The notes beneath the pieces are model-generated. The model searched no databases, was not told the origin of the DNA, and saw only the letters and a program-made list of their open reading frames with translations. 58,106 nt of DNA from positions 1-58,106 of IMG/VR virus record IMGVR_UViG_3300030329_004093, one strand, 5' to 3'. Source of the stretch: a virus. Lineage: Duplodnaviria > Caudoviricetes. Shown here one piece after another: positions 15,016 through 50,954 of the stretch. The translations under genes were made by a program, and so were the position numbers. Every line of letters starts with the position of its first letter. The first letter of the stretch is position 1.

Positions 15016-16581
15016 TTAAGCTATGACCCAAGATTTGGCTTGAGGTCTATGTTTAAAAAATCTTTTATCTTTCTTTTCTTCATGAACACCTATAGGAGGA
15101 TTAGCATATTTACATGCATAAGCCAATGCATCTATAGTATCATCATGTCCCATACGAGGACCAAAAGTTGTTATTTCATGCTCTAAATCATAATCATTTT
15201 TCCTTAAATGAATCTGACCTATAGCAAATCTTTGTGCAAGTATCTCTTGTATTCTATCTCTTTTACTCATTCTTGTTCCAGGTTTTTCTTCTTTAAATCG
15301 AACTGTAAAATCATTTCTCCTTCTAGTTTCAGCTCTTAAAGTTTGAAATATAGGTTTACTCATAGTAGTATCTTCTACTACGTATAAACTGGGATGATAC
15401 ATTTTTGAATACTCAAACATATAGTCTACTATCCCTTTATTTCTTTCTCCTGGAATTCCAAGTACTGGAATACCTCTTTTTCTTATATAGTCAATAATAT
15501 AAATATTATTATCAGAATCAACTCCTATAATCATTATAACACTATAGTCTGCATCTCTTCTTTGACTATCTGTAGCTGGGTCTACCCCAGCAAAAATATT
15601 GACAGGTTTATGTTCTCCATCTATTACTATAAATGATATATCAGTTTCTTCATCATATTTATATTTACCCTCATGATACCTTATATGGTCTCTAGTAAAT
15701 ATAGAATCATCAGCAGACTGAACTTCCATCATATATTCTTGGTAAAATTTATATGGTTGACCTGAATCTGCGTAGAACTTCTTTTTACGCTCCATTTCTT
15801 TTTTACCGAACCAGCTATTCCATAGCATGGTCCCATCATCCATTATAGCTTTCTTAAGAACAACATCCCAAGAAAATTCTTCACCTTCCTTAACAGATTT
15901 CTCATAATTGACGATGAGATTATTAATGAAACTATCATAGTGAACAGGTGTACCATTAATTCTAAGCCTACCAGTAGCAGGTTCCAAAGCAGGGAACACA
16001 ACAGCAGTAATAAGGTTCGAGTTTTTTGCTCGTGCTTCTGGGGTAATGGTATTATTCTCGTCCTCAAAGTCATCAAGTATTACCAAATCATATCTTTTAT
16101 GCAGTTTTGCACCACCTCTAATACCTGAGATGTTTGATTTCGAAATAAGTTTACACCCATTTGTTGTCTCTACGTCTGTTTCTGTCCATTTTGTACCTTT
16201 TAAACTACCGAAATAATACAAAATTCTTTCATTAAATTCCAAATGATATTTAATATAATCCATATTACCAGTTGCAAGTTTAGCAGTTGCAGATACCCAT
16301 CCATAAAATAGTGGTTCTTTTGTAAAACAAAAAGATTGCAGTATATCACATTTAGTAAGAACTGTTTTTCCATGCCCTCTAGGTAGTATAATAGCTACCT
16401 GTCTTTTATCTTTATTTGTAATATTATCGGCAATTTCATAATGAAACGGAGGAGTTTCAGACCTGAGGAAGTCATCTTGCAGGAATAATTTTCCGAAAGC
16501 AATTAAATCCTTTGAGGCTAATTGAAGTGCCTCCTCCTGTTTCGATAATTGTTTAGGTGAGTATTTATTAATATTTGCCAC
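15016..16581 (-). CDS. terL: Terminase large subunit
   Basis: Walker A PRGHGKT, Walker B LVILDDFE, GTP coupling motif, RNase H nuclease GVDPA...DYS and HDDTIDALAY. Confidence 0.93.
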   Translation of the reverse strand: MANINKYSPKQLSKQEEALQLASKDLIAFGKLFLQDDFLRSETPPFHYEIADNITNKDKRQVAIILPRGHGKTVLTKCDILQSFCFTKEPLFYGWVSATAKLATGNMDYIKYHLEFNERILYYFGSLKGTKWTETDVETTNGCKLISKSNISGIRGGAKLHKRYDLVILDDFEDENNTITPEARAKNSNLITAVVFPALEPATGRLRINGTPVHYDSFINNLIVNYEKSVKEGEEFSWDVVLKKAIMDDGTMLWNSWFGKKEMERKKKFYADSGQPYKFYQEYMMEVQSADDSIFTRDHIRYHEGKYKYDEETDISFIVIDGEHKPVNIFAGVDPATDSQRRDADYSVIMIIGVDSDNNIYIIDYIRKRGIPVLGIPGERNKGIVDYMFEYSKMYHPSLYVVEDTTMSKPIFQTLRAETRRRNDFTVRFKEEKPGTRMSKRDRIQEILAQRFAIGQIHLRKNDYDLEHEITTFGPRMGHDDTIDALAYACKYANPPIGVHEEKKDKRFFKHRPQAKSWVIA

Positions 16582-19614: not shown

Positions 19615-20046
19615 ATGTCAGATAAATGTATCATTTGTGATGTAGATGGCACTGTAGCACTAATGAATGGTAAAAGAACACCATTTGAATGGGATAAAGT
19701 GATGTTAGATGACCCTAATAATTGGGTTATATCATTAATAAGAGGATATTTATCATCAAATCCTGGTGTTAACCTGATATTCTTGTCAGGTAGAAGCGAA
19801 GAATGTTATGGACTAACAGATAAATGGCTTCAAGATTGGTTTGGAGATATTAAATATTCATTATTTATGAGACCACTAGACCAATTGTATGAACCAGATG
19901 CTAAAATTAAGTATGAATTGTATTATAAACATATCAGACCTAATTATAATGTACAATTTGTAGTCGATGACAGAAAACAAGTAGTTGAGATGTGGCGAAG
20001 AGTAGCAGGTCTACCAGTTGCTCAAGTTGCAGAAGGTAACTTTTAA
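19615..20046 (+). CDS. HAD-family polynucleotide 3'-phosphatase (T4 PNKP/PseT phosphatase-domain-like)
   Basis: DVDGT, SGR, LFMRP, K, VVDDRKQVVEMWR, QVAEGNF motifs; no kinase domain. Confidence 0.85.
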   Translation: MSDKCIICDVDGTVALMNGKRTPFEWDKVMLDDPNNWVISLIRGYLSSNPGVNLIFLSGRSEECYGLTDKWLQDWFGDIKYSLFMRPLDQLYEPDAKIKYELYYKHIRPNYNVQFVVDDRKQVVEMWRRVAGLPVAQVAEGNF

Positions 20047-23595: not shown

Positions 23596-23752
23596 AATAA
23601 ATACTTGGGTAAGTTATCTTTGGAGAATGAATAAAGATGAAAGCGATGAAGTATTGTGCGAAATAAGAAACTTTTTATTTCAATTTAGAAACAATGCTCA
23701 AAAAGAATATTCATTAATTAAGGAGGATTCTAATGGCAAAGAAGATGAGTAA
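23582..23752 (+). CDS. Hypothetical protein (56 aa)
   Basis: SD AGGAGG before ATG 23582; fills the gap in the operon. Confidence 0.45.
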   Translation: MAKSKINTWVSYLWRMNKDESDEVLCEIRNFLFQFRNNAQKEYSLIKEDSNGKEDE

Positions 23753-23972
23753 ACAAGAGAAAGTCTTAATGTATCTTCAAACTTATGGAAGTATTACTCC
23801 TCAGGATGCTTATGAGCTCTTTCAATCCATGCGATTGGGAGCTCTAATCCATAACTTGAGACATAACGAGCCTTATTATAATATAACATCTAAGTTAGAA
23901 GGTAAAGCTGGTTATGCAAGATACACACTTGAAGATGGAGTATATAAGGATTATGATTCGGATAATTCATAA
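23733..23972 (+). CDS. Winged helix-turn-helix DNA-binding protein
   Basis: QEKVLMYLQTYGSITPQDAYELF..MRLGALIHNLR...YARYTL, typical small phage wHTH. Confidence 0.7.
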   Translation: MAKKMSKQEKVLMYLQTYGSITPQDAYELFQSMRLGALIHNLRHNEPYYNITSKLEGKAGYARYTLEDGVYKDYDSDNS

Positions 23973-24013
23973 TTTTAACGTAAATTACAAGGCTGTCAAA
24001 TAAAGGAGAATAA

Positions 24014-24760
24014 ATGAAAACATTACTCATTGACCTTGAGAATGGATATAAATCTATCGGCGGTAAAGACACAATAGAAGAGAAATTTGGGTTACCATTA
24101 TTAAACTTCAATGACTTTACATCCTTTAGGAATTTTATAAGCCAGCTCTGGTCTCGTAAAATGATTGAAAAAGATGTTAAAGTAGGTAATATATCTATTC
24201 CACAGAAATCATACCAGATAACAGCAAAAGATGGTGTTGAGGTGGATTGTATGGTTATAGATACAGGTAGTGAAATGGCTAAGAAATATGCTAGAGAGTT
24301 AAAAGGTAAAGCTGAATCTTTACAACTTAAACAATGGGGTAAGCTTAAAGATACTCTTGATAATTTCTTTTCATTTACTAACGCTATACCTGCTAGTTTA
24401 ATAGTAAATTGCCATTCTAAAATGCAAGAAGACCATGAGAATGGTGTAGTTAGAGTTATGCCTTATATCGAAGGTTCTACTAAAGTAGATGTCGGTAAAT
24501 GGTTTGATTTTGTCTTTTATACAAAAGTTCATAAAAGTAAAGATGGCTCACGTAAATATATGTGGGTAACAGCTAGAGATGAACATTTTTGTCACGCTAA
24601 AGACAGAACACAGTTATTAGATACTGAAATACCTCAAGATTATGAGATAGTATTTAATGCTGTAAAGGAAAAAGGATGGGATACTGCTAAGGTTCTTATA
24701 ATAGGAGAACCAGGTAGTGGTAAAACATTGAGTTTGAAAACATTAACAAAAGTCAAGTAA
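24014..24760 (+). CDS. AAA_24/Sak4-like ATPase, apparently circularly permuted
   Basis: TLLIDLENG, Walker B MVIDTG, WGKL, NCH, AKDR motifs; Walker A GEPGSGKT at the extreme C-terminus. Confidence 0.8.
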   Translation: MKTLLIDLENGYKSIGGKDTIEEKFGLPLLNFNDFTSFRNFISQLWSRKMIEKDVKVGNISIPQKSYQITAKDGVEVDCMVIDTGSEMAKKYARELKGKAESLQLKQWGKLKDTLDNFFSFTNAIPASLIVNCHSKMQEDHENGVVRVMPYIEGSTKVDVGKWFDFVFYTKVHKSKDGSRKYMWVTARDEHFCHAKDRTQLLDTEIPQDYEIVFNAVKEKGWDTAKVLIIGEPGSGKTLSLKTLTKVK

Positions 24761-24770
24761 AGGAGAATAA

Positions 24771-25289
24771 ATGGCTATAACAGTAACTAAGTCAAGTGGT
24801 GGATATGATGAAGGTTGGAAAACTGTAACTATATCTAGCGCTGTAAAGGGTGATTTTAGTGGTTCTAAATATATAGACCTTTTCTTTGAAACTTATCCAG
24901 AAACTCTTAAATGTAGAATCTGGGAAGCTAGAAATAAAGATGGAGAGGAATTTTCTGTATCAAATATGGTAAGATATTCTAATCCAACTGTATTGGAAGA
25001 AATGGACAAAGATGGAACAACAGCTGCAAGTCTTGATGATTCGCCAACAGGTTTAAAAGGCAAATCTCTTCAAGTGTTATTCTATAAAAAGGATAATGGA
25101 TATTCTGATATATCTCAAAAAGTAGCTCCAGCTGAACCATTTCAAAACATAGTAGATAATTTTACCGAAGATAGAATATCTAGGATAAAACAATCTGCAG
25201 AGAAATATCAAGCTAACAGAAAGGTAGTATCTAATGGCGTAGAAACAACTGATTCAACATCAGATTCTACTAATGATATGCCTTGGTAA
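24771..25289 (+). CDS. Putative single-stranded DNA-binding protein
   Basis: Follows Sak4-like gene; beta-rich N-terminus; acidic tail ending DMPW. Confidence 0.6.
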   Translation: MAITVTKSSGGYDEGWKTVTISSAVKGDFSGSKYIDLFFETYPETLKCRIWEARNKDGEEFSVSNMVRYSNPTVLEEMDKDGTTAASLDDSPTGLKGKSLQVLFYKKDNGYSDISQKVAPAEPFQNIVDNFTEDRISRIKQSAEKYQANRKVVSNGVETTDSTSDSTNDMPW

Positions 25290-25378: not shown

Positions 25379-27130
25379 ATGGTAAGAGAATTTGCATTCG
25401 GACTATCAAATAGGCATCACTTTTTTCCTAGCGATAATTCAGTAAAATGGGAAAATGTTGCTAAAGATACATTTCTATCCTTATATGGCTATGATGAAAC
25501 AGTAAAAGAATACTTCGATAAAAACAAAACACTATCAGGCTTTGATGGCAATATATATATGCCTAAAGAGTTTATGTTAGATGTGGACGGTTCTGAAATA
25601 AAAGAAGCTCAAGATAAAACTATTAAATTAGTTAGCATCTTAGATGATTTAAAAGTACCTTGCAATATTTATTTTAGTGGTAGAGGATTTCATATTGGAA
25701 TACCAGATACTGCTTTTAAATGGAGACCAGGTAAGAATTTACATCTTAGAGTTAAAGATGAGCTTGATAAAAGAGGAGTATACGAATACGCTGATGTTTC
25801 AGTAACTGATAAAACTAGAATAATTAGATTAAATAATACTTTAAATTGTAAATCTAGATTATGGAAGATTTATATAAAGAAAGAAGAGTTATATAATCTA
25901 AATGCTTTAGGGATATCAGCCTTAGCAAACAAACCAAGAATGATAAATATACCTCAATTACAATGTGAGCCAGTATTTGATGTAACTGAAAGGGAGATTA
26001 AAAAGCAAACTATCAAGTTTAAAGAAACTATAGGTAGTGAGCCAGACCCTATGTTATATCCATGCATACAAACAATGTTAGGTGGTTCTTCTTATGGAGG
26101 GAGACATGCAACAGCATTACGTTTAGGTGCTTGGCTTAGATGGAGGTATCCAGAGAATGTAGTAAGATTAATCATGGAAGACTGGCGTAAAAGGGTAAGT
26201 ACTTTAGAACATCCTTTTAAAGAAGATGAAATGAATAGACTTATTACTGATTGTTATAAAGGTCATGGAGGTAGTGGATATAGATATGGCTGCAATGATA
26301 AAATAATGGATAAACATTGTAATTCTACGTGTACTTTATTTAAAGCGAAAAAATCTCAAGGTGTCATGAGTGCTGAAGATATGGAAGAAAATTTAATAAG
26401 TTTTCTAAAAGGAGATACTAAACCTATAAATCTAGGTAGATTATATGGTAAAGACTTTCCTATATATCCTGGCGAATTAGTAGTAATCCAAGCTCCACCT
26501 AAATCTATGAAAACTATGTTAGTTCAAAACTGGGTTAATTCCCTTAAAAGACCTACATACTTTCTTGAAATGGAAATGTCTGCAAGACAAATGTGGCAAA
26601 GATTCATTCAAATAGAAGAAGGATGGAGTGAGGAGCAACTAAGAGAGCACTATGCTAATACTAATTATAAACTAGCTAATAAATTTAAATGGTTAAACAT
26701 GGATTATCAACCTTGTTTTGCTATTGAATTAGAAAAGCGGTTAAGTATATTGCCAGTTAAACCAGAAATTGTAGTTATAGACCATATGGGATTATTACTC
26801 TCTAAACATAGAGACCTTAATCTTAAAATGGAAGAAATATCTGGAGCATTAACTGAAGCTGCAATAAAGAATAATATAGTAGTTATAGCAATATGTGAGA
26901 TTACTAAGCAAGCAATGACTGAAGGTATGGGAATATCTTCTGTAAGAGGTTCATTTAGAATCGCTTACAATGCAAGTAAAATAATGTCTCTAACAACAGC
27001 TAAAGATACTGAAGGTAATGTTAATACTATGGTAATAAAGACTGAAGCTAATAGAGAAAGAGGTTCACTTGATGTATTGCTTAAAGTAAATGGTTTAAGG
27101 ATAGATACTAAAGGAGGTGAATATGCCTAA
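25379..27130 (+). CDS. Primase-helicase fusion (AEP primase + Cys-rich domain + SF4/DnaB-like helicase)
   Basis: AEP motifs LDVD, FSGRGFH, D..RIIRL; Cys cluster; helicase YPGELVVI-APPKSMKT, LEMEMS, VVIDH. Confidence 0.8.
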   Translation: MVREFAFGLSNRHHFFPSDNSVKWENVAKDTFLSLYGYDETVKEYFDKNKTLSGFDGNIYMPKEFMLDVDGSEIKEAQDKTIKLVSILDDLKVPCNIYFSGRGFHIGIPDTAFKWRPGKNLHLRVKDELDKRGVYEYADVSVTDKTRIIRLNNTLNCKSRLWKIYIKKEELYNLNALGISALANKPRMINIPQLQCEPVFDVTEREIKKQTIKFKETIGSEPDPMLYPCIQTMLGGSSYGGRHATALRLGAWLRWRYPENVVRLIMEDWRKRVSTLEHPFKEDEMNRLITDCYKGHGGSGYRYGCNDKIMDKHCNSTCTLFKAKKSQGVMSAEDMEENLISFLKGDTKPINLGRLYGKDFPIYPGELVVIQAPPKSMKTMLVQNWVNSLKRPTYFLEMEMSARQMWQRFIQIEEGWSEEQLREHYANTNYKLANKFKWLNMDYQPCFAIELEKRLSILPVKPEIVVIDHMGLLLSKHRDLNLKMEEISGALTEAAIKNNIVVIAICEITKQAMTEGMGISSVRGSFRIAYNASKIMSLTTAKDTEGNVNTMVIKTEANRERGSLDVLLKVNGLRIDTKGGEYA

Positions 27131-27611
27131 AAGAAGTCTAAACCAAATAAGTAGTGATATTATGTTAGTACAAAATAGTTTCGAGCTAACCGAGCAAGAA
27201 ATAGACGAGCAACTAGATATACTACATACTGAACTACATGAAAAAGAAAATGGAGTTTACTGGTTTTATAGGAATCTCGATAGTAAAATTGATTTAGCTA
27301 AAGAGTATAAAGAAAAAGCAGATGCAGTAATTAAAAAGCTTAAATATACTCAAGAAAAACTAAAGAAATTAGTATTAGAAGCTTATTCAGCTAGTAGTCA
27401 ACTCCCATCTCATGATGAGTTCAATCCTATTAAGATAATAGAAATGGGTAAAGTAGAGATAATAGATGAATCTAAAATACCAGATGAATATTATATTGAG
27501 AAGATTGAGACCAGATTAGATAAACGTAGAATACTTGAGGAATTAAAAGAAGGAGTAGAGATTCCTGGAGTAACATTAAGGAAAAACAAACATGTCAGGG
27601 GGTTAAAATGA
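27123..27611 (+). CDS. Siphovirus Gp157-like protein
   Basis: Coiled coil followed by VEIIDESKIPDEY...LDKRRILEELKEGVEIPGVTL; SD GGAGGTG. Confidence 0.75.
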   Translation: MPKRSLNQISSDIMLVQNSFELTEQEIDEQLDILHTELHEKENGVYWFYRNLDSKIDLAKEYKEKADAVIKKLKYTQEKLKKLVLEAYSASSQLPSHDEFNPIKIIEMGKVEIIDESKIPDEYYIEKIETRLDKRRILEELKEGVEIPGVTLRKNKHVRGLK

Positions 27612-28405
27612 TAAATCCTTATGGAGAAATAAGAAAAGTACCTTTAGATTATCAAGGTATTACATCTTCAGCTTATGCAGTACAAAGACAAGAGCTAAAA
27701 GATGAGAAACTTATGTGGAAAGAATGTGGAGTAGTTGGTAGTAACTATCTTCTTGTTCCTAACACAGAGGTAAGGGACCTTGCAAATGAAATAGCATCAG
27801 AATCTAACCATGAATGGGAGCCTATGAAAACTTTCTTTGATGGTAAAAGATTTATTTATTTCATGCAATCTAAGTCAGAGACTACTCAAATAAAAGAGGG
27901 TGATGATGTTGCTCTTGGTATGGGTTTCTGGAATAGTTATGACGGTTCTACAGCGTTACAATTTAGAACGTTTCTTGTAAGATTATTATGTACTAATGGT
28001 ATGATAACTAAAGACTTCATGAATTTAATGAGGTTTAAACATAATAATAAATCAGAAGGTTACGAGGACCAGATAATAAACGCTGCTAAAGTAGTTGACA
28101 ACTGTGGAGAGGATATTGAAACAGTTGCACAAAGGATGAGGAAAATGGTAGAAACTCCACTTAATTTAAATGAACTAGCTTATATGAGAAATCATGACTT
28201 AGCTCATTTACCTGTTACATTATGGGGTAAGATTAGTACACACTTTATGAATAAAGACCGTGAGAAAATCTTAAATAATGATGTAAGTATGTGGGATTTC
28301 TACAACGCATGTACGGATGTACTATGGCACGATGAGAAACCTACTATGGCCTCATTTGAGCATAATCAGATAATAACTGATAACTTGCTTCAAGCTATGG
28401 CTTAG
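27608..28405 (+). CDS. DUF932-like phage protein
   Basis: GVVGSNYLLVPN, NSYDGS, RLLCTNGM, WDFYNACT motifs. Confidence 0.75.
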   Translation: MINPYGEIRKVPLDYQGITSSAYAVQRQELKDEKLMWKECGVVGSNYLLVPNTEVRDLANEIASESNHEWEPMKTFFDGKRFIYFMQSKSETTQIKEGDDVALGMGFWNSYDGSTALQFRTFLVRLLCTNGMITKDFMNLMRFKHNNKSEGYEDQIINAAKVVDNCGEDIETVAQRMRKMVETPLNLNELAYMRNHDLAHLPVTLWGKISTHFMNKDREKILNNDVSMWDFYNACTDVLWHDEKPTMASFEHNQIITDNLLQAMA

Positions 28406-29824: not shown

Positions 29825-30002
29825 AGAAAAAAGAATGGCAAAAGAATTTGAAAACAGTATTATTAAATGCGCTATTATTGATTTTTTAATAGAAGAAATA
29901 ATGCTAAAGGGTAGTTATGAAAAGCTTTCTTATTGGGATAAAACTGCTGTATCGAAATTAGTTGGTAAAAAACTTTATTTATTTGGAAGAGTTACTGCTT
30001 AA
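29817..30002 (+). CDS. Hypothetical protein
   Basis: Last plus-strand ORF, SD GGAG; converges with 29999..33598. Confidence 0.45.
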   Translation: MNREKRMAKEFENSIIKCAIIDFLIEEIMLKGSYEKLSYWDKTAVSKLVGKKLYLFGRVTA

Positions 30003-33000
30003 TCTTCATCAATCAAACTCTGTAAAGCATCCTTAGATAAACCATGAGTTGTTGCACTTGGGAAAACTGGTCTTGCAATATCCATAAAACTATTAGCTGC
30101 TAACTCACCTCTTTCTAAAGCAATATGGAATATTAATAATAACCAATCCATTGTCCATGTTACTCCATATCCAAATGGTGCATTCATAACAAATTTTCTC
30201 ATAAATCTTGATGTTTCTTCCCACTCATCATCATCGTCATCAAAACCTGCTGCTGCTTGGATAGCAAATACTAAAATACTCGCTAATCCTTGAGCATACA
30301 TTGAAGGTAACCCTCTAATCATACCACCTAAACCTACTGCTCTAGCTGTATTTTTTATAACACTTAACATAGCTAGATTACCTAAAGGACCCCATATTAC
30401 TAAATCCATTAACGCTGCTGTTAAAACTCCAGTTGTCAGAAACTTATACATTTGAGCTACTTCTTTTTGAGCTATATTCATCTTATTATAATTATGTAAA
30501 CTCCAATAAGAATACTTGCCAGGAACTGCTCCTTTTTTAATTATTTTAGTAACTGCTTTGGCCCAAGGAAAGAATCCAGTTTTATGCAAATCAACAAGTC
30601 CCATTTGAGTTATAGCGGCGTTTTTTGTAACTCTCCAATCACGACCATTCTTTTGAAATCCCCAATAATTAAATTTTTGTAACCATTTACCTAAACTTCC
30701 ATAACCTGCAGCTCCCATATCAGTGCTAGATAAACCCATATTTGAATACTTAGATATTTTCCTGCCTATTTCCATAGCTTTAGATAGCTCTTCACCTTCT
30801 AATTCCCACATATGAACGCTACTATCTATATATCCTAATCTTTGAGCTTGTAGTACACCTACTATAAATGATATACTTCTAATCCAAGATTCACCTGCAG
30901 ACATAGTTAAATTAGCTGATTTATATATCTCACCCTTAGCTTTCCACCAAACAGATAATCCCTTATATATATTAGCAGGAGTTTTATATTTCCAATTAAA
31001 CATAGAAGCGAAATGATTAATCTCATATTCCTTAGTTAGTGCATATTCAACCCAAGTATTTAAAATTGCATCTAATTTTTTACTTATAATATTTTGTTTT
31101 CTTATTTTAATATCATCTTTAGCTAATATTTTATTAACTTCTAGATTATAAGCTGGTGAGTTTTTCATTATATCTTTAACAAGAGCTCTAAATTCTAATA
31201 AAGATAGTGTATTAACCATATCTTCTTTAGATACACCTTCTGTAGCTAGTTTAACTTTCTTCATTTGAGCAATTAATGCACTTTTACTCATATTGGAAAA
31301 CATTTCTTTTGTAGCTGGATGATTTAACATAGCAGCATATATCTTCTCAACACTATGATTATCCATATTAAATCCAACTTTATCATTAACAAGAGATTTG
31401 CTAAAGAAATCTTGGAAAGCAGCAACTCCAGATTTAGCTATAAACATAGCAACTTCTTCAGGATGTTGATTCATGTATTCCTGAGCATCTTGAACAGCAT
31501 TAAAATTCCAATCTTGAACTGTTTGCATAATAGCTACTTTATTGATTATAGCTGTGCTCATTCCTCCTAAAAATGTAGCACTAAGTACTTTATTAATTCT
31601 ATTAGATATTCTTTGTATATTATGAACATCCATTCCTAAGGCATTGGCTATTTTTTGGTCAGATATACCTAAAGGACCTTCAACAGTAGGTGAATTAAAT
31701 GGTACTTTATAGTAATTTATTATACCTTTTTGAACAGATTCACTTTTAGTAAGCAATAAAGCTTCTAGCATTTCAGCTGTTAGTTTATTCCTATTAATGG
31801 CAGCAAATGTTTCATTTAAATGTTCATAATAAACAGCTTTATCTACATTAAGATTACGTATATCAAATGCATTAGTAACTCTCTTTAAATGTTTATGATG
31901 CCTAACAAATGGCATTTCCTCGCCTCTTACCATATCTTCTGGGTATATACCATCTTTCATTTCACTTATATTTCTAGCTCTTTTTAACTGGCTTTGTGTG
32001 ATACTTAATTTTTCATTTACATATTCAAGTTCATTTCTAGGAGATTCAAATTTCGCACTAGAATAAGGTAAATTATTTTCTATAACTTTTATTATTTGGT
32101 TTCTTCTTTTTTTCCAGCCTGCTTCTTCTTTCTCTAATCCATCTATATAACTATCCCACATAAGTTTAAAGGTTTGATTGGGATACCTTATTGGAAAGTG
32201 ATTTCTTCTATATTCAGATTCATTTGCTTGATTTCTAAACATTTCAACTTTAGCAATATTGCCAAAAGTTTCTTTAAAAGTATTATATTTTTCCATATAA
32301 GATGTTTTATGCTTATCGTCTAAATATTTTATTCTATCTAATATTTTCTTCCTATCTTTAATTTTCCATTCTTCAAAAAATAAAGTAAAAACCTCACCTT
32401 CACTTAAATCAGGAAAATGTTTTCTTAATGCTGATTTCATTGCATCAACAGATTCTAAAAACTCTTTTCTTGAATGTTTATATAAAGCATCTTCAATTTT
32501 TCTCGCTTCCTTAGTCATACTTAAGAATGATTTTATTTGAGTTTTAGTAAAAGGTATATTAAAAGAACCGTTTCTAAAATCTTTCAAATCTACTGGGTCA
32601 CTAAATGCAAATATAGGCTTTTTAGTTCCTTCATAAAACTCACCTGTTGTACCCCAGTTTTTATTTGCTTTAAATTGGGTACCATCAAATTCAATTTCAC
32701 CTATCATGTATCTTATAAAGAACTCTATCATTTTTTGCTTTTTAGTTAGCATTTCTCCCTTAGGTAGTTTCCATTTTTTTATATTAAGAACCATATCTTC
32801 TAAATCTTTAAAAATATCAGACATACCTTTAAATTCAACTTTAACAGATTTACCTTTTATTCTTTTAGTAACTGTTCTTTTATACATGAAATTACCAATA
32901 TCATTTTCTACAGATTCATAGTATTTATCCATTTGTTGAGAAAACTTAAAATATGCTCCACTTCTTTCTTTTTTACCTAATTCTTTTGGAGTAGTCCATC

Positions 33001-33598
33001 TAACCATAAATTTACCAAAAGCTCCTTTAGCAAATGTATTCTCATCAACAAAATCTTCTTTAGCAGTAGCCCAATTCCATGCTTTTCTATATATAACTTT
33101 CAAGGTTCCTACAGGTTGTACTCTTAAAATTTGTTTTAATTGTTCTTCTTTACTTAATTTATCGAAATCTTTTTTCTCTAAACCACCTTTACCAAATAAA
33201 GATGACTCTATAGATTCACTGCTAGGGGCCCATGGAAGAGCGCTTTTTCCCTTTTTACCAGAAGGCATGTGTCTCCATAACTCTTCTTGTACCATATCTT
33301 TCATTAATGGATTAGCAATAAATAGAGTAGCTATTTTAAATGCAAGTAAATATCTTTCACCTTGAGTACCATATTGTTGGTTAATAAAATCTTCTATCTC
33401 ATTCTCTGGAATAACATCATATAAAAGCTCTTTTATAGCTTCTTCACTAGCGGTTTTAAAATGCTCATCTACTTGCTGAACAAGTTCTTTCATGCCTATT
33501 ACATCAGCTTCTGTTATAATAGCATCTTGTATAGCCTGTTCAATAACATCTAAATCATTATGACCATCTTTTACTATTTGACAATTACTTTTAGCCAC
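29999..33598 (-). CDS. Large internal virion/ejection protein
   Basis: 1199 aa, helical, hydrophobic C-terminal segments; directly downstream of the giant RNAP gene. Confidence 0.55.
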   Translation of the reverse strand: MAKSNCQIVKDGHNDLDVIEQAIQDAIITEADVIGMKELVQQVDEHFKTASEEAIKELLYDVIPENEIEDFINQQYGTQGERYLLAFKIATLFIANPLMKDMVQEELWRHMPSGKKGKSALPWAPSSESIESSLFGKGGLEKKDFDKLSKEEQLKQILRVQPVGTLKVIYRKAWNWATAKEDFVDENTFAKGAFGKFMVRWTTPKELGKKERSGAYFKFSQQMDKYYESVENDIGNFMYKRTVTKRIKGKSVKVEFKGMSDIFKDLEDMVLNIKKWKLPKGEMLTKKQKMIEFFIRYMIGEIEFDGTQFKANKNWGTTGEFYEGTKKPIFAFSDPVDLKDFRNGSFNIPFTKTQIKSFLSMTKEARKIEDALYKHSRKEFLESVDAMKSALRKHFPDLSEGEVFTLFFEEWKIKDRKKILDRIKYLDDKHKTSYMEKYNTFKETFGNIAKVEMFRNQANESEYRRNHFPIRYPNQTFKLMWDSYIDGLEKEEAGWKKRRNQIIKVIENNLPYSSAKFESPRNELEYVNEKLSITQSQLKRARNISEMKDGIYPEDMVRGEEMPFVRHHKHLKRVTNAFDIRNLNVDKAVYYEHLNETFAAINRNKLTAEMLEALLLTKSESVQKGIINYYKVPFNSPTVEGPLGISDQKIANALGMDVHNIQRISNRINKVLSATFLGGMSTAIINKVAIMQTVQDWNFNAVQDAQEYMNQHPEEVAMFIAKSGVAAFQDFFSKSLVNDKVGFNMDNHSVEKIYAAMLNHPATKEMFSNMSKSALIAQMKKVKLATEGVSKEDMVNTLSLLEFRALVKDIMKNSPAYNLEVNKILAKDDIKIRKQNIISKKLDAILNTWVEYALTKEYEINHFASMFNWKYKTPANIYKGLSVWWKAKGEIYKSANLTMSAGESWIRSISFIVGVLQAQRLGYIDSSVHMWELEGEELSKAMEIGRKISKYSNMGLSSTDMGAAGYGSLGKWLQKFNYWGFQKNGRDWRVTKNAAITQMGLVDLHKTGFFPWAKAVTKIIKKGAVPGKYSYWSLHNYNKMNIAQKEVAQMYKFLTTGVLTAALMDLVIWGPLGNLAMLSVIKNTARAVGLGGMIRGLPSMYAQGLASILVFAIQAAAGFDDDDDEWEETSRFMRKFVMNAPFGYGVTWTMDWLLLIFHIALERGELAANSFMDIARPVFPSATTHGLSKDALQSLIDED

Positions 33599-36500
33599 AA
33601 ACTTCCTCTATATGTTTTTCAATCATTAAATCACCCACTCTATTAAATCTTTTTTCCATGTTCCTATTATTAGCAACTTCTTTATTATACAGCTCAGCAA
33701 ATTTACTCAATATTTTAGCATCTAACAATTGCTTTTCTGATTTAGACCTACTAGCTGGAGGTATATGAGTTCTTGTTTTAGTACCATCCCATCCTTCAAG
33801 GAAATGATATGTAGCAGCTACTTGAGCTACCCTTGATAATGCTTTAAAATCTTTATCAAAATTTGTTTTCCAAACTACAATTGGTTCATTTCTTTCCATA
33901 AAAGTAGGACTATCTGCTGATTTATCATTTGCATCTATAATACCTTTAAATCTACCCAACATATTTCTAGCATATAATTCACCTTTATCCCACTCAGATT
34001 TAGCCCAAGCACTCTTTTTACCCTGAACTAATCCTGATTTAGTATCCTCTAAAAATGCATCTCTTAAATATTGCTGCGCTATAGAAGGTAATAGGAAGTA
34101 TTCAACTGCTCTATCATGTGCATTTCTGTGTACATTATAATGCAATTTAATAGGACTACCATCAGAACCTATAATATTATATTTATTTTGCCATATTTCA
34201 TACTCTACATAAGGAGCAATAGCTATCTCTTCTATAGGAGTTAGTATGTTTGATTTAAAAGATACTCTTATATCTGGAGCAATACCTTTTATATAAGACT
34301 CTCTGTCTCTGGTATACTGATAGTAAGTAGAACTCTCATCTATTGTATCACTTAATCTTAACTTACCTTCTTCAAAATCAAATCCACTTCTAACTTTATT
34401 AGGAGTTTTCAAAAATTTCAAGTATGGTTTAAGCTTTTTAAATGCTGTTGCTGAGATAGTTTGACCTGCTTGAGGATGACCTTCTCCATATTTAAATAAT
34501 GAACGAGATAAACCATCATATGTATAGTTCCATTGTTGCAATAACATGTATTTAGCATTATCTACAGCAGCCTGAAGATATATCCTGAGTATTTTAGATA
34601 CCGTAAATGTTGGTATTTTACCATCTATTTTACCTACATTAAATTTAACCTTTTCATCTGGTTGCTTTAATTCAACTCTACCTACACCTGTTACGTTTAT
34701 ATGGTCAATTGTATTGACAAGTAATCCATATATAGATTGTATATTAACTATTTCACCTTGTTTATTATAGGTCATAGCTTCCATTAGCCTAAACCTATCA
34801 TCAGCCTTAGATAAATCTAATTGCCCTAATTTAGAATCAAATTCATTTAAATTAATACCACCTACCTCAAGTTCTTTAAAGAATTCAATAAAAGTATCTT
34901 CTATCTCTGATACAAATTTACCATCTGTATACTCATAAGGTAGCATTTCAAGTGATACCCAATCTCCATCATAATCTCCTTCAAGTCTTGCAAATACATC
35001 ATAAGGACTAAGCTCTATTAATCCACCTCTATTAAATAATCTTTTAATTCTAATTATCATAGCTCCACCAGCATGTGGTATAGGAGACCTAGCCATAAAC
35101 ATATTTACTGGATTTTCTGCAAGCCATTCATTTATTTCAGAAACATCTGTATCCTCAGCAACTTTCAAAGATATATTTTTAGCTGTTGCAAACTTAAGTA
35201 ACACTTGTTCTGCATTAGATTTCGAAAGCGCTGCTTCCCCTCTTTTTAAATCTCCTCTTAAATTAGGAGCTAAGTCAGCTTTAGTTCCTGGTTGTCTTTT
35301 AATCTTTAAGGTAGGAGTCATTTCTTTTGTTTGATATAAAACATTTAACATTGGTTCTAAATGCCATACAAAACCAAGTTTATTTAATTCTACTAGAGTA
35401 TTTCTAAATCCTATTTCATCATTTATATCTATTTTCTCAATTATATCAGATACTCTTTTAGATGCTGATTTAACAGTGGTGTCAGAGAAATCTCTATATA
35501 TACCAGCTATTTGAGCCTTAACATTAGATAGTATGTGATTTTTAAATGCACTTATTACTCTGGAGTCTGTTATGTGATTATACCACTGCATCATATGATT
35601 GCCAGTAACAGCATATTTTTCATCAGCATATTTAGTAAAACCTATCTCTCTTCCACTTACAGTAATACCTTTTTTACTAGTAGCTCCACCATACACCCAC
35701 TTAGCTTCATCTTGTGTTATAATCATATCCATACCTGCTGCTTCACCATCAACGAAGTTACCATTTTCATCTACTCTAGCAAGTAAAGTATCTCCCTCCC
35801 ATATCTCTATGCCCGATTCGGGCTGATAATGTTGGTGTTTAACTGCAACACCTTCCCCATCCCTATTCTTATATATAACAGTTTTAGCTTTAGCTTGTCC
35901 AGGTGTTAATCCATGATGTAATTCAAATGCTTCAAATAGTTGCCTAGCAGTAATACTACCACCATCTCCTATATAAAGATTGTCTACAGTCTCTACTAAT
36001 CTATATCCTTTGTTTGTTTTCTCTCTATATTTAAATACTAATTTTTCTTTATCTGCGATATACATATTAACATCAGTCATAGATGGGCTAATAGTCATAG
36101 GAGTAAAAGGTAGCTTTATTCTTTTACCTACAGTAGCAGCATCCATATCTAAATAATCAGGAAATATACTAGTCATAGCACTATGAACAGCTAATTCCTG
36201 AGCTGAATCAAATCCCATACTTTTATAATAAGCTTTATGATTATCAGTAACATCTACTATTAACAGCTTATCTGAATCACCTCTTGACATAACTATAGTT
36301 TTACTATGCTGAGTATAAAGCTCATCATTTAAAGTAGAAAGCTCATCTGCTGTAAAGAATCCATATCTAGACTTTTTATTCTGAAGAACATCTTTACCGC
36401 TTATAAAGGATATTAATCCACCACGAATACTCGTTAAATGTGTATACTTTTCATTATTATTAAGCTCAAATGGTGTTATTTTATCTGTAGAATTATTCTT

Positions 36501-39500
36501 TCCTCCAAGTTTGCTATCTGGTCCTTTTAATTCTATGCTCATTTCCTTAGCTACAGTACCTGCAAAATTACCTTCTGAATCAGTTATTACATCGTATTTT
36601 GTAATAATAGCATAAAAATTATCTCTAGCATTCATTTTACCACCTTCAGAATTGATAGTTAAACTGCTGAATAATCTATTAAACTTTTTAATTTGTTTTC
36701 TTGTCATACTAGGAGGGTAGCTTGCTCTTTTACCTATAATTTTAGAAACTTCTTTAACCCAAGTATCGAATTTATTCTCTATACTTAAATCTCTCATTAT
36801 ACTATAAGCTAGTTTATTTAATTGTTTAGCTACGTCAAAATCAACATGTACTCCAAACTCATCTCTATATGCAAAATCATTAGAACTTAAAGACCTTTCG
36901 TCACTTTCATTTTTATCTATTAAACCAGCCCAGCCTTCTCTATTTGCTCTCTCTATTTCAGTTAAAAAGCTAGATACTCCCATATCTATTTCTTCCTGAG
37001 GAACTAAAGTTTCTTGGGCTTTTCCAACAGCTGTATCTTTATAAGCTAATGAAGAATGCTTAGAGAACATAGTATCATACCAGAAAGAAAACTTAGAATG
37101 CAATTCAGGTGGTAACATGCTCATCATAGCATGTCTAAAATATTCAGGATGCACATAAAACTTTCTGGCTAATGCTTTATTTGTTTCATTCATCACTATA
37201 TTTAAATCTAACCATGCATTTTTAAATATTCTATTTATCTCTATATTTTTAGACAAATTAGGGTCTTCAATTTTCTGGTATCTTATCTGGTTATTAATTT
37301 TATTACTAAGTTGATTTAAATCTTTAGGAGTAGATGATTCGGCATCATGCTTTTCAATTACTTTCTGCATTCTAAACGTCTGATATGAAAGGACCCCTGG
37401 TATATTAAGGTATGTAATTTTCATAGTCTGACCTTTGCTCCAAGAAGGAGTGAGTATTTCATAATCAATCAAACCTTGTTTCTTCATATCTTTAACTATA
37501 ATATTTAAATCTTTTATAAATGGACCAGTTTTACCTTTTATCATAGGAAGCTCAATAGTCTCACCTGTTTCTTTTGATTCAACTTTCTTTATCTCTCTGT
37601 AATGCTTTAATACTAATTTTTGAGCTTCAGACCCTCTCCATAAAACTGCATTAGTTTTATTATTATGCTGTGGTTCATAATAAGCTTCATATAAATCTTT
37701 ACCAATCTCATCTTTTTGTGCATTACTTAAAAAATCAAATTTATCTACAATATTATTTACTATACTGCTTGCTTTTTCAACTCTAGACATTGTTTCTCCA
37801 CGACCATCTGGAAAACTTGCAGTTGAGAGATGTTCTCTGAATACATTCATCAAATAATTCCAAGCAGATTCATCAGCAGTATTGTAAAAGCTAAATGCTA
37901 AATCATTTCCTTGAATCATAAGATTAACTGCACCTAATCCAATATGTAATGATGGCTTTCCGTTTGCTGCTGAACGTTGTATTGAATTTAATATACGTAT
38001 TTTATTTAAACTTTTCTTTAAAGTGACTAAGTTTTTAGCAGGGCCTAATACGCCTGGAAGAATCTCATCTATCTGACTATCAATATTTTCTTTAGTAGCA
38101 TCTTCAGTTACAATATCTTTCATAATTTCAAGTGATTTATTTCTAAACTCAGTAATAGGTATAACTTGTCTTGTTAAATTACCTATCCTTTTTAAAAGTC
38201 GTTCTTGAAATATCATTCCAATAGAACCTGATAATTGCATTTTTCTTATAGATAAAAATTCATTAAAATCTTTGTCAAATTCATTATTCTCTTTTTCAAT
38301 CTCTTTAAAATGAACTAAGTTTTTAAATCTATTTCTTAAACCAAAAATAAAACCATAAAAACCTCTATCATTATCTCTGAATGTCTCTATTAGCTTTTTC
38401 TTAACAATACCTTTTTTTCCTTTTATAACAACATTCAAGCTATCCTCTAAAAGTATTTGTAATTCATAATTTACCTGATTTAATTTTATCTTAGGTATTT
38501 TAAACATTCGGCTTAATTCAATATCATTAATTTTCATTAAATCATTTTTAGAAGATATTCTATTTTTTAGAACTTGATTGTATTTAAAAATCTTTTCGTT
38601 AAGCCAATCTTCTATAGCAGAATCTTTTAAAGCTCCTTTATTTGACAGGATGAAATCAAAAGCATCAACCTCTTCTATATATCTTATATTTAAAAGATTA
38701 GAATAAAGTTCTTTAGGCGCTCTTCCAGTAACTATTTCATCTAATATTTCTAGAGACATCTTATTCAAGGTATGAGTTAATATTTTACTTGAATTAGGAG
38801 CAAAGTAATCAAACATTATATTACCAGCTTCTCTGTAACCTATATTCGTATTAGCTTGCTCAACAGAAACGAAGGATTTATTCCATATTATATCACTAAG
38901 TTTCTCCCAATTTAAATTTGAATACTCTTTAGTTAATGCATATATATATAATTTTTCAATTTCAGATATTCCAGATGATGATTTCATATACTTCTCTGAT
39001 GACGATGATGAATCAGATAAATATCTTTTTATATTTTCAGGAGAAAAATCTAATTTATCAACAGCATTTCCAAAATGTGATATATTTTTATTTAACCACT
39101 TTGTTTTAATAACAGACATTATCTTAACTTGACCATTCTCGCTATTAACTATATTATTTAAATGTTTAGATATTAAATTAATTGCATCATCAGTCCATGT
39201 AACCTCAAATACATTCAAACTTTGACCTGCAGGCAATCCGTTTAAAAGCTTACCGTACCAACCATATCCTAAAGATTTAACTACTTTTTCTTCTAATACT
39301 TCAATATCTTTTGTGATTAAATCTGTTTCACCAGTTAATCCAGTTTGCTTTTCTTCATTTCTTTTTTTTATATATTTATCTGGATTTTCAACATACTCAT
39401 AAATTTCATCTTTTATTATTTCATCATTAGCAGCTATAACATCAGTCTGATATTCATGAGCAATATCTGTATCTTCTATATCAGGAGGTAATGTCTGAAC

Positions 39501-42500
39501 TCTGTACCAACCAGCTGCATTAACAGCTCTATCCGTAGTCTCTGTATCTCCAAATTTTCCTAAATGTATATTATGACCTATGCCTTGACCACCATGTTTC
39601 TCATAAGTATCATAAGCTTTACCTGCAAAGAAATAAATCTTCTTGCTAGGTAATGGTCTTCCTATTTCTAATTCAATAGGCTCATAAAAGTTGTCTTCAT
39701 CTTCTTGCTCAATGTTTTGAGGGATGGTTAAATTAGAGCTTTCATATAATTCTACTGCTTCTGAAGTAAAAGCACTTTGAACTGTAACGTAATCTTGATG
39801 ATAGCTACTTTCAGCAGCATGTATATTATAATTTTTCCTCATAAATCTTGTATACATGTTAACCCATGCATCAAAAGATAAAGGATTATCATCGTTTACT
39901 ATTTCAGACCACTCTACAGTTCCTAAGCTTTCAATAAACTCATTAAATATTACTTGTTCTTGAGTCTTGATAGGCTTTTTACCTTTAAAAGAAGTTAATA
40001 ATTGAGAATAACTAATCTTAGTATCTTTAGTATTCAATTGCAATTGTTTTATTCTATCTACTACAGCATATTTAAAAGAAAGTTCTATTAATTTATATTG
40101 AACAGCATTGCTAACTTTACTTACCCACCCATCACCAAAAGCTACTGGAGATTGACCAGCTGCTTCGTCAGATGTAGGAGGTATTAAACCAACATCTTCT
40201 AATCTAGTAAATACTAATTGGTCTTGTAAATGATTCAAAGAAGATACTAAAAGCCTATTATCTCCATCTAATAAATCAGATTTTATTTGAGCTTTGTAGT
40301 TTTCTAAATGTTTAGATAGCTTTTTTTCACCCCATAGAGATTTAGGCAAACCTATTTGTTTTAATAATCTATCATGTATTTTCTTAGGAAGTTCTTTTAA
40401 CTGAGCTTGAGCTCTTCTATAAAGTTTTCTTTCTTTTGGTTTTAAGCTGCTTAAATCTTTACCGTATTTTCTTAATTTTTTTATACCATCTATAATCTTA
40501 TCAACTTCATCATTAGCTATATTCATATAAGCTGGAATAACTACTTTTGTATGATAATTATATTCAGCATTACCGTATTCTATAATATCATCTTCAAAGC
40601 TAATATCTGTATTTTCTCCAAATTCTTTTCTTAGTGATTCAAATTCTTTAGTATCCAGTATTAAACCTTGTTTAAGCAATTTATCATATTGAATTGCAGT
40701 AGTTACGCTGGTAGGTTTTAAATCATCTAATATAGTATACCTATTATCGTCAAGCATCATATCAACAACTTTACCTAAAGTCATATTATCTTTAGCAAAA
40801 TCATAGAAATCAACATCAAGATTGTATTTAGAGTTATCTCCGAATAAAAATCTCTTAACTAAATCTAAAAACCTTTTCCATGCATTTATAATACCAGACC
40901 ATTTACTATTTCTTTGCTGATAATCAGATAATTGTTTAGCTTTCTTAGCTGCTTCTCCAAAAGTCTCGGCTAAAACTTCTTCTATAAATCCATCACTACC
41001 CTCTTGAAGTTCAGGATATTCTTTTAAAACCCATGCATATAATTTCTTTCCTTCATCATCTTTAATAATATCTTTATATATATCTAAAACACTACCCTTA
41101 ACCTGTTTATTATTTAGTAATGCTCTAGCAATAACATGCCCTATCTCATGAAAAGGAGTACTCATAGTCATGTACTTAGGGTTTAACCAAATAGTATCTG
41201 TATCTGAATCATATGCACCTCTAAAATTATAGAGACTACTATTTCTTTCATTTTCAGGAACTAATTTAAATTGAATTGTTTTTGAAGTATCTACATCAAG
41301 TGCATCTTGTAATGGAGTTTTTGATATAGTTCTAGAGAATTTTTTATTTAAAATATCAATAGATTGTTGTATAAATACTTCTTTTTCTTCTTCAGCTAGC
41401 TTCTTAATATCTTCTTCAGATAGAACCTTTTGTTTTCGAGACTTTTCAGAAACAGGCAATTCTAGGCCTCTTTTTTTCAACTCAGCCTTAATAGAGGCTT
41501 TGTTCATTTTAGCGGCCATATTGCCCCTTTTTTGGCTTTCTAAAACAGAACCTTTAAAGGATTTCAGTAAATCTTCATCAGAAAGGTCTTCCCAACTAGC
41601 TTTTTCTTTAACCTTTTCTAAATAAAACTTAGAGTCAGTTTCATCACCAACTTCAGGAGTTTTTTGAGCACTTATCTTTTGTTTTACTTTTTTAGTAACC
41701 CTAGGTAATGGTAAACCTCTTTCTTTTAATTCAGTTCTTATAATAGGAATTTCCATATCTACTCCACCCTTAGCTTTTCTTTCAAGATATTCATCTTTAA
41801 GTTCTTGGTCTGAGTATTGTTTATATTTTCCTACATCTACTTCTGTTTTTATATCCTCTCCAACTTCTACAGTTTTTTCATCTAATAAATCTTCTCTTTC
41901 TATAACTGTATCAGGAGATATATCTTCTTCATCTTTTTCAATTAAATCTTCTTTAACAATCTTTTTACCATCAGGATTTACATCCATATCTTCTGCCTGT
42001 TCGCTTTCAGTAGGAACTTCTAATAAATTATCTATTTTACTAAACTCTTCAGCATAAACTTGCTCCCACATATTATCTTTCATAGCAGATAGTAAGTCAG
42101 ATTTTTTAACTCCAGCTCTATTTAAAATTTCAAATGCATTACCTGTTTCCTTTTTAGACTTTTCTAATATTTCTAATATCTTTTCAGGGCTTCTTTTATT
42201 ATCATCTAGATTGTCATAAAAGTCAAGTTCATCTCCATCCTCTAGCATATTAACAAACCCAGCTAATATATTAGCATCTTCATCTACATTCATAGTACCA
42301 TCTTCATTATAAGTAACAGTACTTTTTCTTCCAGCTTTTCTTTCATTAAAATCTGCATTTTTCTCAGCTTGTTTTTCTACGCTATTAATATTTAACTTTT
42401 CTTGTCTTTCAAAATTCCAAGCTTTTTGAGCAGTATCAAATGTAACACTATTAAGTAGATTTCCATTTGCTCCAATAATATCTACAATATATTTCTTACC

Positions 42501-50524: not shown

Positions 50525-50954
50525 CGTGTTTATTTGTAGAAATATCTCTTCTAGTTACATATTCTAACCCAAAGTCATTTATAAATAAATTACCTGGCCA
50601 TACAGGAGAAAAAAACTTTAATTGAGCATCTTTTACTGATAAATTTAAATCAGATAAATCTACTTTATAATAATATGCACCTCCAGAAGTTCCTTGTCTA
50701 ACAAGGTCAGAATTAGTCATAGAAAAAAGAGGAATAGAGTTTTCTCCAATTATACAAGATACACTTAAATAAAAATCATTTGATTCTAATACTCCATATT
50801 CATCATATATTTGAGGACCATAAAAAACATTAACATAAGCTCCTGTAATTCTTTTCTCACTATTTACAACACCTAAATCTGTAAGCTTTGTGATAAACTT
50901 CCAGTGTGTACTTACAGGTTTTGAATTCCATATTTTAGCAGATACAACCTTCAT
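50514..50954 (-). CDS. Hypothetical tail-associated protein
   Basis: Overlaps nozzle gene; TKLTDLG...K and INDFGLEY resemble tail tubular B C-termini. Confidence 0.45.
   Translation of the reverse strand: MKVVSAKIWNSKPVSTHWKFITKLTDLGVVNSEKRITGAYVNVFYGPQIYDEYGVLESNDFYLSVSCIIGENSIPLFSMTNSDLVRQGTSGGAYYYKVDLSDLNLSVKDAQLKFFSPVWPGNLFINDFGLEYVTRRDISTNKHDED

Follow-up and report, generated by a model that had tools for sequence, protein, structure and literature searches.

Sak4 of coliphage HK620 binds single-stranded DNA (ssDNA) in an ATP-dependent manner and anneals strands; it is described as RadB-like and is stimulated by the single-stranded DNA-binding protein (SSB) of the adjacent gene through the last six residues of the latter, NDYPPF, similar to the DDDIPF tip of E. 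coli SSB (PMC5928155). The Sak4 of Staphylococcus phage 52A (ORF016, structure 8RC5) forms a Rad51-like filament, solved by cryo-electron microscopy with ATP-gamma-S and Stl2 (PMC11846896). In proteins of this AAA_24/Sak4 type the Walker A strand-loop-helix comes first and is followed by the LxIDxE strand. Here we analyzed P0001, an open reading frame (ORF) at positions 24014-24760 of the virus record IMGVR_UViG_3300030329_004093, which keeps the motifs of that family and places the Walker A unit at the very end of the chain. The window, that is the whole stretch of DNA under analysis, is the complete record of 58,106 bases (CheckV completeness 100%, ends linear), and the virus is a tailed phage with a terminase, a portal and a major head protein.

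P0001 resembles HK620 Sak4 in family (AAA_24 and PHROG 124), in consisting of the core only, in its similar size and in having both Walker A and Walker B; it differs in that the Walker A strand-loop-helix, first in HK620 Sak4, is last in P0001, following the usual C-terminal helix after a linker of 5 residues. Archaeal RadB and the eukaryotic Rad51 paralogues (XRCC2, RAD51D and others) share with it a RecA core lacking an extra DNA-binding domain, but they have the canonical order and their similarity is at the level of fold only (template modelling score, TM, 0.36-0.38; E >0.01). The natural permutants of P-loop proteins that we found in the literature searched are GTPases only. In the YRG group (YlqF/YawG/RsgA/YqeH) the motifs run G4-G5-G1-G2-G3, with the P-loop (G1) away from the N-terminus in conserved families, and in the cpRAS GTPases the order is G3-G4-G5-G1-G2 (PMC2430557 for YRG). 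P0001 is comparable to these solely in the kind of rearrangement, in that a P-loop NTPase domain has been circularly permuted in nature; they are TRAFAC GTPases, whereas P0001 is a RecA-type (ASCE) ATPase that is not homologous to them at the family level, and no GTPase family exceeded its cut-off in a Pfam scan of P0001. Moreover, further motifs follow the P-loop in YRG and cpRAS, whereas P0001 is cut right after helix alpha-1, the P-loop unit being its extreme C-terminus.

The protein begins with MKTLLIDLENG and ends with AKVLIIGEPGSGKTLSLKTLTKVK, and an AGGAG Shine-Dalgarno lies 8 nucleotides 5' of its ATG. These letters, including GEPGSGKT at 24704-24727, were read identically to the earlier note, which had described that start, a clear Shine-Dalgarno and the C-terminal motif. 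The strict pattern G-x4-GK[ST] occurs once in six frames of the entire record, at 24704-24727. An upstream in-frame Walker A, which would have undone the observation, is impossible because a TAA codon abuts the ATG. The features of the gene are the following:

24001-24013, + strand: ribosome-binding region (TAA, AGGAG and spacer), with an in-frame TAA at 24011-24013 abutting the start codon.
24014-24760, + strand: the whole ORF P0001, 248 amino acids, a circularly permuted AAA_24/Sak4-like RecA-core ATPase (ORF translation, Pfam, PHROG and six-frame search).
24017-24673, + strand: domain body, residues 2-220, from strand beta-2 (LLIDLENG) to the last helix (PQDYEIVFNAVKEK), equivalent to positions 40-229 of the canonical-relative profile and 24-195 of AAA_24.
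24248-24262, + strand: Walker B strand CMVID, residues 79-83, with D83 invariant in 76 permuted sequences.
24413-24415, + strand: H134, at the end of strand 128-140, invariant in the same 76 sequences.
24674-24688, + strand: short linker GWDTA, residues 221-225, between what used to be the C-terminal helix and what used to be the N-terminal strand (from alignment and model).
24689-24751, + strand: relocated strand beta-1 (226-231), Walker A GEPGSGKT (231-238) and helix alpha-1 (239-246), with G236 and K237 invariant in the 76 sequences.
24758-24760, + strand: stop codon TAA, 2 residues past helix alpha-1 and within the ribosome-binding region of the next gene.

The order of segments was examined with sequence profiles. 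Pfam AAA_24 (PF13479) matched P0001 with 56.1 bits (cut-off 27; E 5.9e-15), residues 2-199 corresponding to profile positions 24-195, and no other Pfam domain of the protein was above its cut-off. When the last 36 residues were taken alone, residues 225-246 aligned to AAA_24 positions 3-24 (E 3.2e-3), thus giving the two out-of-order segments that the earlier note had expected from HMMER. The result was repeated in three ways. A profile built from 25 of 38 canonical relatives found two domains in P0001, profile positions 40-229 at residues 2-220 (independent E-value, i-E, 1.9e-45) and positions 14-38 at residues 223-247 (i-E 1.9e-07); these matches abut with neither gap nor overlap (38/40 in the profile, 220/223 in the protein), and the reversed two-domain pattern was obtained with all eight permuted proteins tested against it. 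In a six-frame AAA_24 search of the genome, both pieces came back out of order within a single open frame, and no second AAA_24 gene was seen. Finally, a profile of the 76 permuted sequences matched the phage 52A Sak4 (8RC5), the closest solved relative by this measure (E 2.2e-09), with profile positions 206-245 on chain residues 21-65 and 72-204 on 113-253, as the canonical order of that protein differs from ours.

P0001 has the Walker A, the Walker B and the acidic residue after beta-2 of AAA_24/Sak4 proteins, and it is a single RecA core of 248 amino acids that is predicted as one confident domain; what departs from the family is the collinear order of Walker A first and LxIDxE strand second. 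Because it agrees with AAA_24/Sak4 in profile, motifs and architecture but not in collinear order, we filed it as a permuted variant of that family. In the strand LLIDLENG, residues D7, E9, N10 and G11 are invariant among 20 close homologues, the position of E9 being D in a distant clade; a conserved AKDR motif includes R198. D83 and the acidic residue after beta-2 would have catalytic roles, and H134 we take to be the gamma-phosphate sensor, from what is generally known of RecA-type ATPases.

The unusual order is shared by a large set of homologues. A word-indexed search returned 239 of them at E<=1e-3, and the best 120, coming from ENA, JGI, Tara, NCBI and Logan assemblies, are 62-89% identical to P0001 and measure 239-253 amino acids in 116 cases. 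Walker A falls within the last 35 residues in 118 of these 120 and within the first 60 residues in none, so the C-terminal motif is kept far beyond chance. The two that are tail-less (207 and 228 amino acids) are probably truncated or frameshifted records. In an alignment of 20 sequences G231, P233, G234, G236, K237 and T238 are invariant, and in the linker of close homologues G221 is invariant and W222 nearly so.

An exhaustive search of cluster representatives at 50% identity gave 329 matches at E<=1e-3, and the best 150 were sorted into 63 full-length permuted proteins, 38 canonical ones and 49 fragments or ambiguous cases. The 63 permuted representatives, at ~24-48% identity, have Walker A near the C-terminus and none of them has it at the N-terminus; the 38 canonical ones have it at residues 19-38. 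The 76 permuted sequences have a mean column identity of 23% and share no invariant columns other than D83, H134, G236 and K237, two of which (G236 and K237) fall in the relocated P-loop. Homologues of the same order, which the earlier note had proposed to look for, are therefore many, both among close relatives and among distant cluster representatives.

We also considered that the arrangement could be an artefact or a decaying gene, whether through misassembly, a frameshifted fusion or survival as a dead ATPase remnant. The same architecture is found in the close homologues and the 63 distant representatives counted above and in all 18 related IMG/VR loci, which have identical gene-end architecture and the same downstream gene, while all catalytic motifs are invariant. 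The gene start is spanned by marine metagenome contigs at 23769-24297 and 23798-24286 (0 differences) and the gene end at 24670-25100 (0-1 differences), the contigs coming from two studies; the check for misassembly gave no sign of an artefact. This explanation, which we judge already refuted, has next to no chance of being right. The permutation itself is practically certain; natural circular permutation of an AAA_24/Sak4 RecA-fold protein, the first of the two options raised from the sequence, is supported by HMMER, by the order in homologues, by AlphaFold2 and by the bridging contigs.

A tblastn search of 50,697 GenBank phage records with P0001 matched only Moraxella phage Mcat23, with 24% identity over residues 64-213, and the queries P0142 and P0170 had no match there; related-locus searches with P0142 and P0170 singly gave none either. 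A narrower alignment of permuted sequences (A4) found 3 viral loci, and one scan of prokaryote genome contigs with it yielded no family member. With no member in the GenBank phage records or in the prokaryote genome scan, the permuted family is known only from uncultured viral contigs, mostly marine. In public annotation its members appear as 'AAA family ATPase / AAA_24' or 'hypothetical protein'. Some permuted homologues (P0105, P0107, P0108, P0112 and P0113) carry a precomputed PF23916 (EndoS TIM-barrel) label; in P0105 the match, to RecA-core residues 59-163, scores 27.1 bits where the cut-off is 27, and it is almost certainly a spurious borderline match.

The fold was predicted with AlphaFold2 from the 76-row alignment of permuted sequences, giving a mean predicted local distance difference test (pLDDT) of 96.4 and a predicted TM-score (pTM) of 0.92, with no segment below 70. 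Over residues 201-248 the blocks of 10 residues average 98, 98, 98, 97 and 94, and the predicted order at the C-terminal end is helix 210-220, the linker of 5 residues, strand 226-231, P-loop and helix 239-246. The model is thus one confident domain that includes the C-terminal strand-loop-helix, which is what the check by AlphaFold proposed earlier had sought. Judging from model confidence and homology, strand 226-231 would lie within the sheet beside Walker B. Ahead of the Walker B strand, and after the first helices, the model also displays a long two-stranded beta hairpin (residues 46-71, at 24149-24226; strands 46-57 and 60-71), which falls within a gap in the alignment to the canonical-relative profile and could be a DNA-binding or subunit-contact arm.

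Foldseek against BFVD placed a member of the same family first (82% identity, TM 0.96), followed by models of canonical phage AAA_24, RecA-like and Sak4-like proteins with TM ~0.5-0.67. Several structural points weigh against the reading of a permuted Sak4 with its P-loop packed in cis. Foldseek against the PDB returned no match at E<=0.001; its top probabilities (0.80-0.87) belong to chain D of RAD51-paralogue (BCDX2) complexes, with TM 0.36-0.38, and 8RC5 is not among the 50 best PDB matches. A poor result of this kind is expected when a sequential aligner is given a permutant, and it is to be taken as absence of support rather than as support. In addition, the cis packing, with K237 near D83, is suggested by the confidence of the model, and a closed monomer is what AlphaFold is inclined to draw even where a protein swaps domains.

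The latter point bears on whether the P-loop might act in trans, the second of the two options, with the C-terminal strand-loop-helix swapping into the core of the neighbouring subunit along a ring or filament, so that it would be a swappable module handed to the next subunit and the ATP site would exist only once subunits were joined. ATP sites of RecA/Rad51-type proteins lie at subunit interfaces, and the Sak4 of phage 52A forms filaments (PMC11846896). The chain finishes with the relocated element, which comes after a conserved Gly that could be a hinge, and AlphaFold monomer models cannot separate a swapped from a closed arrangement. However, the linker 221-225 has only 5 residues and is conserved, and the monomer model is confident throughout, the tail included. 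Because of the short linker and the confident monomer model we consider a P-loop working in trans quite unlikely, and packing in cis is preferred.

How the permutation arose was approached through a tree of the core, made with a quick method after cutting off the P-loop unit (70 permuted and 38 canonical rows, 227 columns). The well-supported branches of this tree force only 1 change of state, and a tree that keeps all 70 permuted rows together has a log-likelihood 23.49 above that of the free search and is not rejected (approximately unbiased test, p = 0.772). A single origin fits the data, although it is not proven. Tandem duplication, in-frame fusion and truncation are the textbook route to circular permutation, and the abutting profile matches are as this route predicts.

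Three observations go the other way. The quick tree as such puts the permuted rows in three clades (of 11, 14 and 45 rows), with 2 changes of state. A duplicated or fused intermediate was not found among relatives of 435-2000 amino acids, which is weak evidence. And the C-terminal 36 residues match nSTAND3 and AAA_22 as well as or slightly better than AAA_24 (E ~9e-4), which means that alone they are not specific to AAA_24. For this reason the P-loop piece was possibly captured from another ATPase gene: a core devoid of its own P-loop would have gained the N-terminal P-loop segment of an unrelated ATPase, an account that concerns history only and not present function, and with which the missing intermediate also agrees. 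Nevertheless, the whole strand-loop-helix of the tail corresponds to positions 14-38 of the canonical-relative profile and directly adjoins the core match. A chimeric origin is thus highly improbable, and rearrangement within one gene is favoured.

An exact direct repeat of 16 bases, TAAAGGAGAATAAATG, comprising stop, Shine-Dalgarno and start, brackets the gene at 24001-24016 and 24758-24773; allowing up to 1 mismatch, it has 2 matches in the window versus 0.03 expected. We tried it as a recombination scar and rejected this, since the exact repeat is present in 0 of 18 related loci, which have merely generally similar ribosome-binding sites. The pair probably represents two look-alike ribosome-binding sites. 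As a separate observation, three marine metagenome runs contain contigs whose match to the window starts only at 24005 or stops at 24772, with unrelated sequence beyond; 24005 and 24772 lie in the ribosome-binding sites bracketing the gene, and further breaks were seen at 23731 and 24752. These breaks may reflect exchange of the gene as a cassette between phages, or short look-alike stretches.

P0001 lies in a rightward early module with the order helix-turn-helix (HTH) protein, permuted Sak4, 172-amino-acid ORF, primase/DnaB-like helicase and Mu Gam-like protein. The genes around it are:

23733-23972: HTH protein, part of the module context.
24771-25289, + strand: 172-amino-acid protein of no known family, a candidate cognate SSB-like partner (tentative assignment).
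25379-27130, + strand: primase/DnaB-like helicase fusion.
27117-27611, + strand: Mu Gam-like DNA-end protection protein.
19615-20046: polynucleotide kinase-like gene (PHROG 505, 6e-45), upstream of the module.
27608-28405: gene of 265 amino acids (PHROG 1221, function not known), after the Gam-like gene.

The 172-amino-acid ORF encodes a protein rich in beta structure; it has a C-terminal helix, and its polar/acidic tail, ...TDSTSDSTNDMPW, has the tip NDMPW. It is comparable to the SSB of HK620 in being encoded by a small gene directly downstream and in having an acidic tail with a Pro-aromatic tip (NDYPPF there; PMC5928155). Its counterparts have a P-W or P-F tip in all 18 related loci, with one extra D in 4 of them. 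Moreover, in two loci of a permuted clade with ~30% identity (L021 and L022), the permuted gene is followed by a small acidic-tailed protein (ending in EDTSFPTA and DDELMF) and then by the primase-helicase. The 172-amino-acid protein is thereby a candidate SSB-like partner, of a new kind, for proteins of the Sak4 type.

The evidence for such a partner is nonetheless mixed, and four results speak against it: its Pfam match to Phi29 SSB is sub-threshold (E 0.0023), it has no PHROG match, its AlphaFold2 model (13 rows) is poor (pLDDT 48.7), and its family shows no similarity to the downstream proteins of L021 and L022 (hhalign probability <1%). It has 270 homologues, and the 120 listed are 71-98% identical and lack a precomputed Pfam domain; in the ESM Atlas it falls in unnamed viral clusters only, one of them with DUF669 on 15% of its members, which is a lead only. 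A complex prediction of P0001 with this protein scored 0.00 against a mark of 0.32, which gives no verdict either way.

With regard to function, PHROG 124, 'Sak4-like ssDNA annealing protein', matches P0001 with E 2.2e-22. The names AAA_24 and PHROG 124 are annotations and not tests, the BFVD matches carry mixed names (AAA-ATPase, 'helicase (NTP-binding)', 'putative sigma factor'), and the permuted gene sits two genes upstream of the primase-helicase; P0001 might thus be a real permuted RecA-core ATPase that is not an annealase, and would instead load or assist the primase-helicase or act as a regulatory NTPase. Against this, P0001 has its best family match in Sak4-like annealing proteins and its closest solved relative in a Sak4 recombinase, the Sak4-then-SSB order of HK620 and other phages (PMC5928155) is mirrored here, the SSB-like tail tip included, and a Gam-like end-protection gene in the module fits a role in recombination. 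A function other than annealing is therefore unlikely in our view, and the Sak4-type annealase remains the preferred reading.

Other features of this genome are as follows. The primase-helicase (25379-27130) does not have the strict G-x4-GK[ST]; its best candidate by eye is QAPPKSMKT, with no usual Gly before Lys. For the terminase gene (15016-16581) a strict Walker A was present in none of the six-frame translations. Three very large ORFs, at 33591-44822 (3743 amino acids), 50951-56227 (1758) and, on the minus strand, 29999-33598 (1199), take up ~1/3 of the 58-kb genome.

Taken together, P0001 probably works as a Sak4-type annealase that depends on ATP and has its P-loop packed in cis. In a canonical chain beta1, Walker A and alpha1 lead, and beta2 and all remaining elements come after them; the permuted one runs beta2 (MKTLLIDLENG), the whole core, the last helix, GWDTA, beta1, GEPGSGKT, alpha1 and stop. 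The relocated strand would slot back into the sheet of its own chain at the normal beta1 position and, with Walker B D83, E9 after beta2 and the sensor H134, would rebuild an ordinary ATP site. The protein would then form a Rad51-like oligomer or filament that binds ssDNA in an ATP-dependent manner and anneals strands of complementary sequence, possibly aided by the SSB-like protein from the directly downstream gene, in what appears to be a replication/recombination module with the primase-helicase and the Gam-like protein. The permutation would most likely have arisen once, presumably through tandem duplication, in-frame fusion and loss of the outer parts, and would later have diversified widely in uncultured, mostly marine, tailed phages. 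Segment order, conservation, intact ATPase motifs, a confident single-domain model and a conserved neighbourhood are established; for every family member ATPase and annealase activity is deduced from sequence, which is a further point against too firm a reading.

As far as the literature searched shows, a RecA-type (ASCE) P-loop ATPase with a natural circular permutation has no earlier description, and P0001 would be the first. No description of a Sak4/RecA-type permutation was found in that literature, a prior mention being possible since subscription journals and survey supplements (PMC13552848 and others) were largely outside the search. In the papers richest in mentions of Sak4 among those that speak of permutation, the passages concern non-permuted genomes and permuted reaction orders. 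Among the papers listed on circular permutation together with P-loop NTPase and ATPase, none is on RecA-type permutants judging by title, one of them referring to methylases, and among those on circularly permuted, Walker A and RecA-like proteins none is on such a protein judging by title and the start of the abstract. In the text of the CIRPIN survey the terms P-loop, AAA, ATPase, Walker and phage are all absent.

The family is large: the best 150 matches include no fewer than 63 of its clusters at 50% identity, and there are hundreds of close marine variants. It also calls for caution in annotation and fold-search pipelines, because its members are filed as ordinary AAA_24 and P0001 was missed by a sequential structure search of the PDB. 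For recombineering it may be worth considering a Sak4 that is compact, wired differently and accompanied by a candidate SSB-like partner. In a RecA-type sheet the P-loop strand is central; since this strand comes last in P0001, the core would be incomplete until the final 25 residues emerge. If the P-loop were indeed swapped between subunits, this would be a new coupling of assembly to nucleotide binding in the RecA superfamily. The family thus offers a natural test case for the assembly of such folds and for the tolerance of P-loop ATPases to rewiring, and it signals a recombination module that is widespread among uncultured marine phages.

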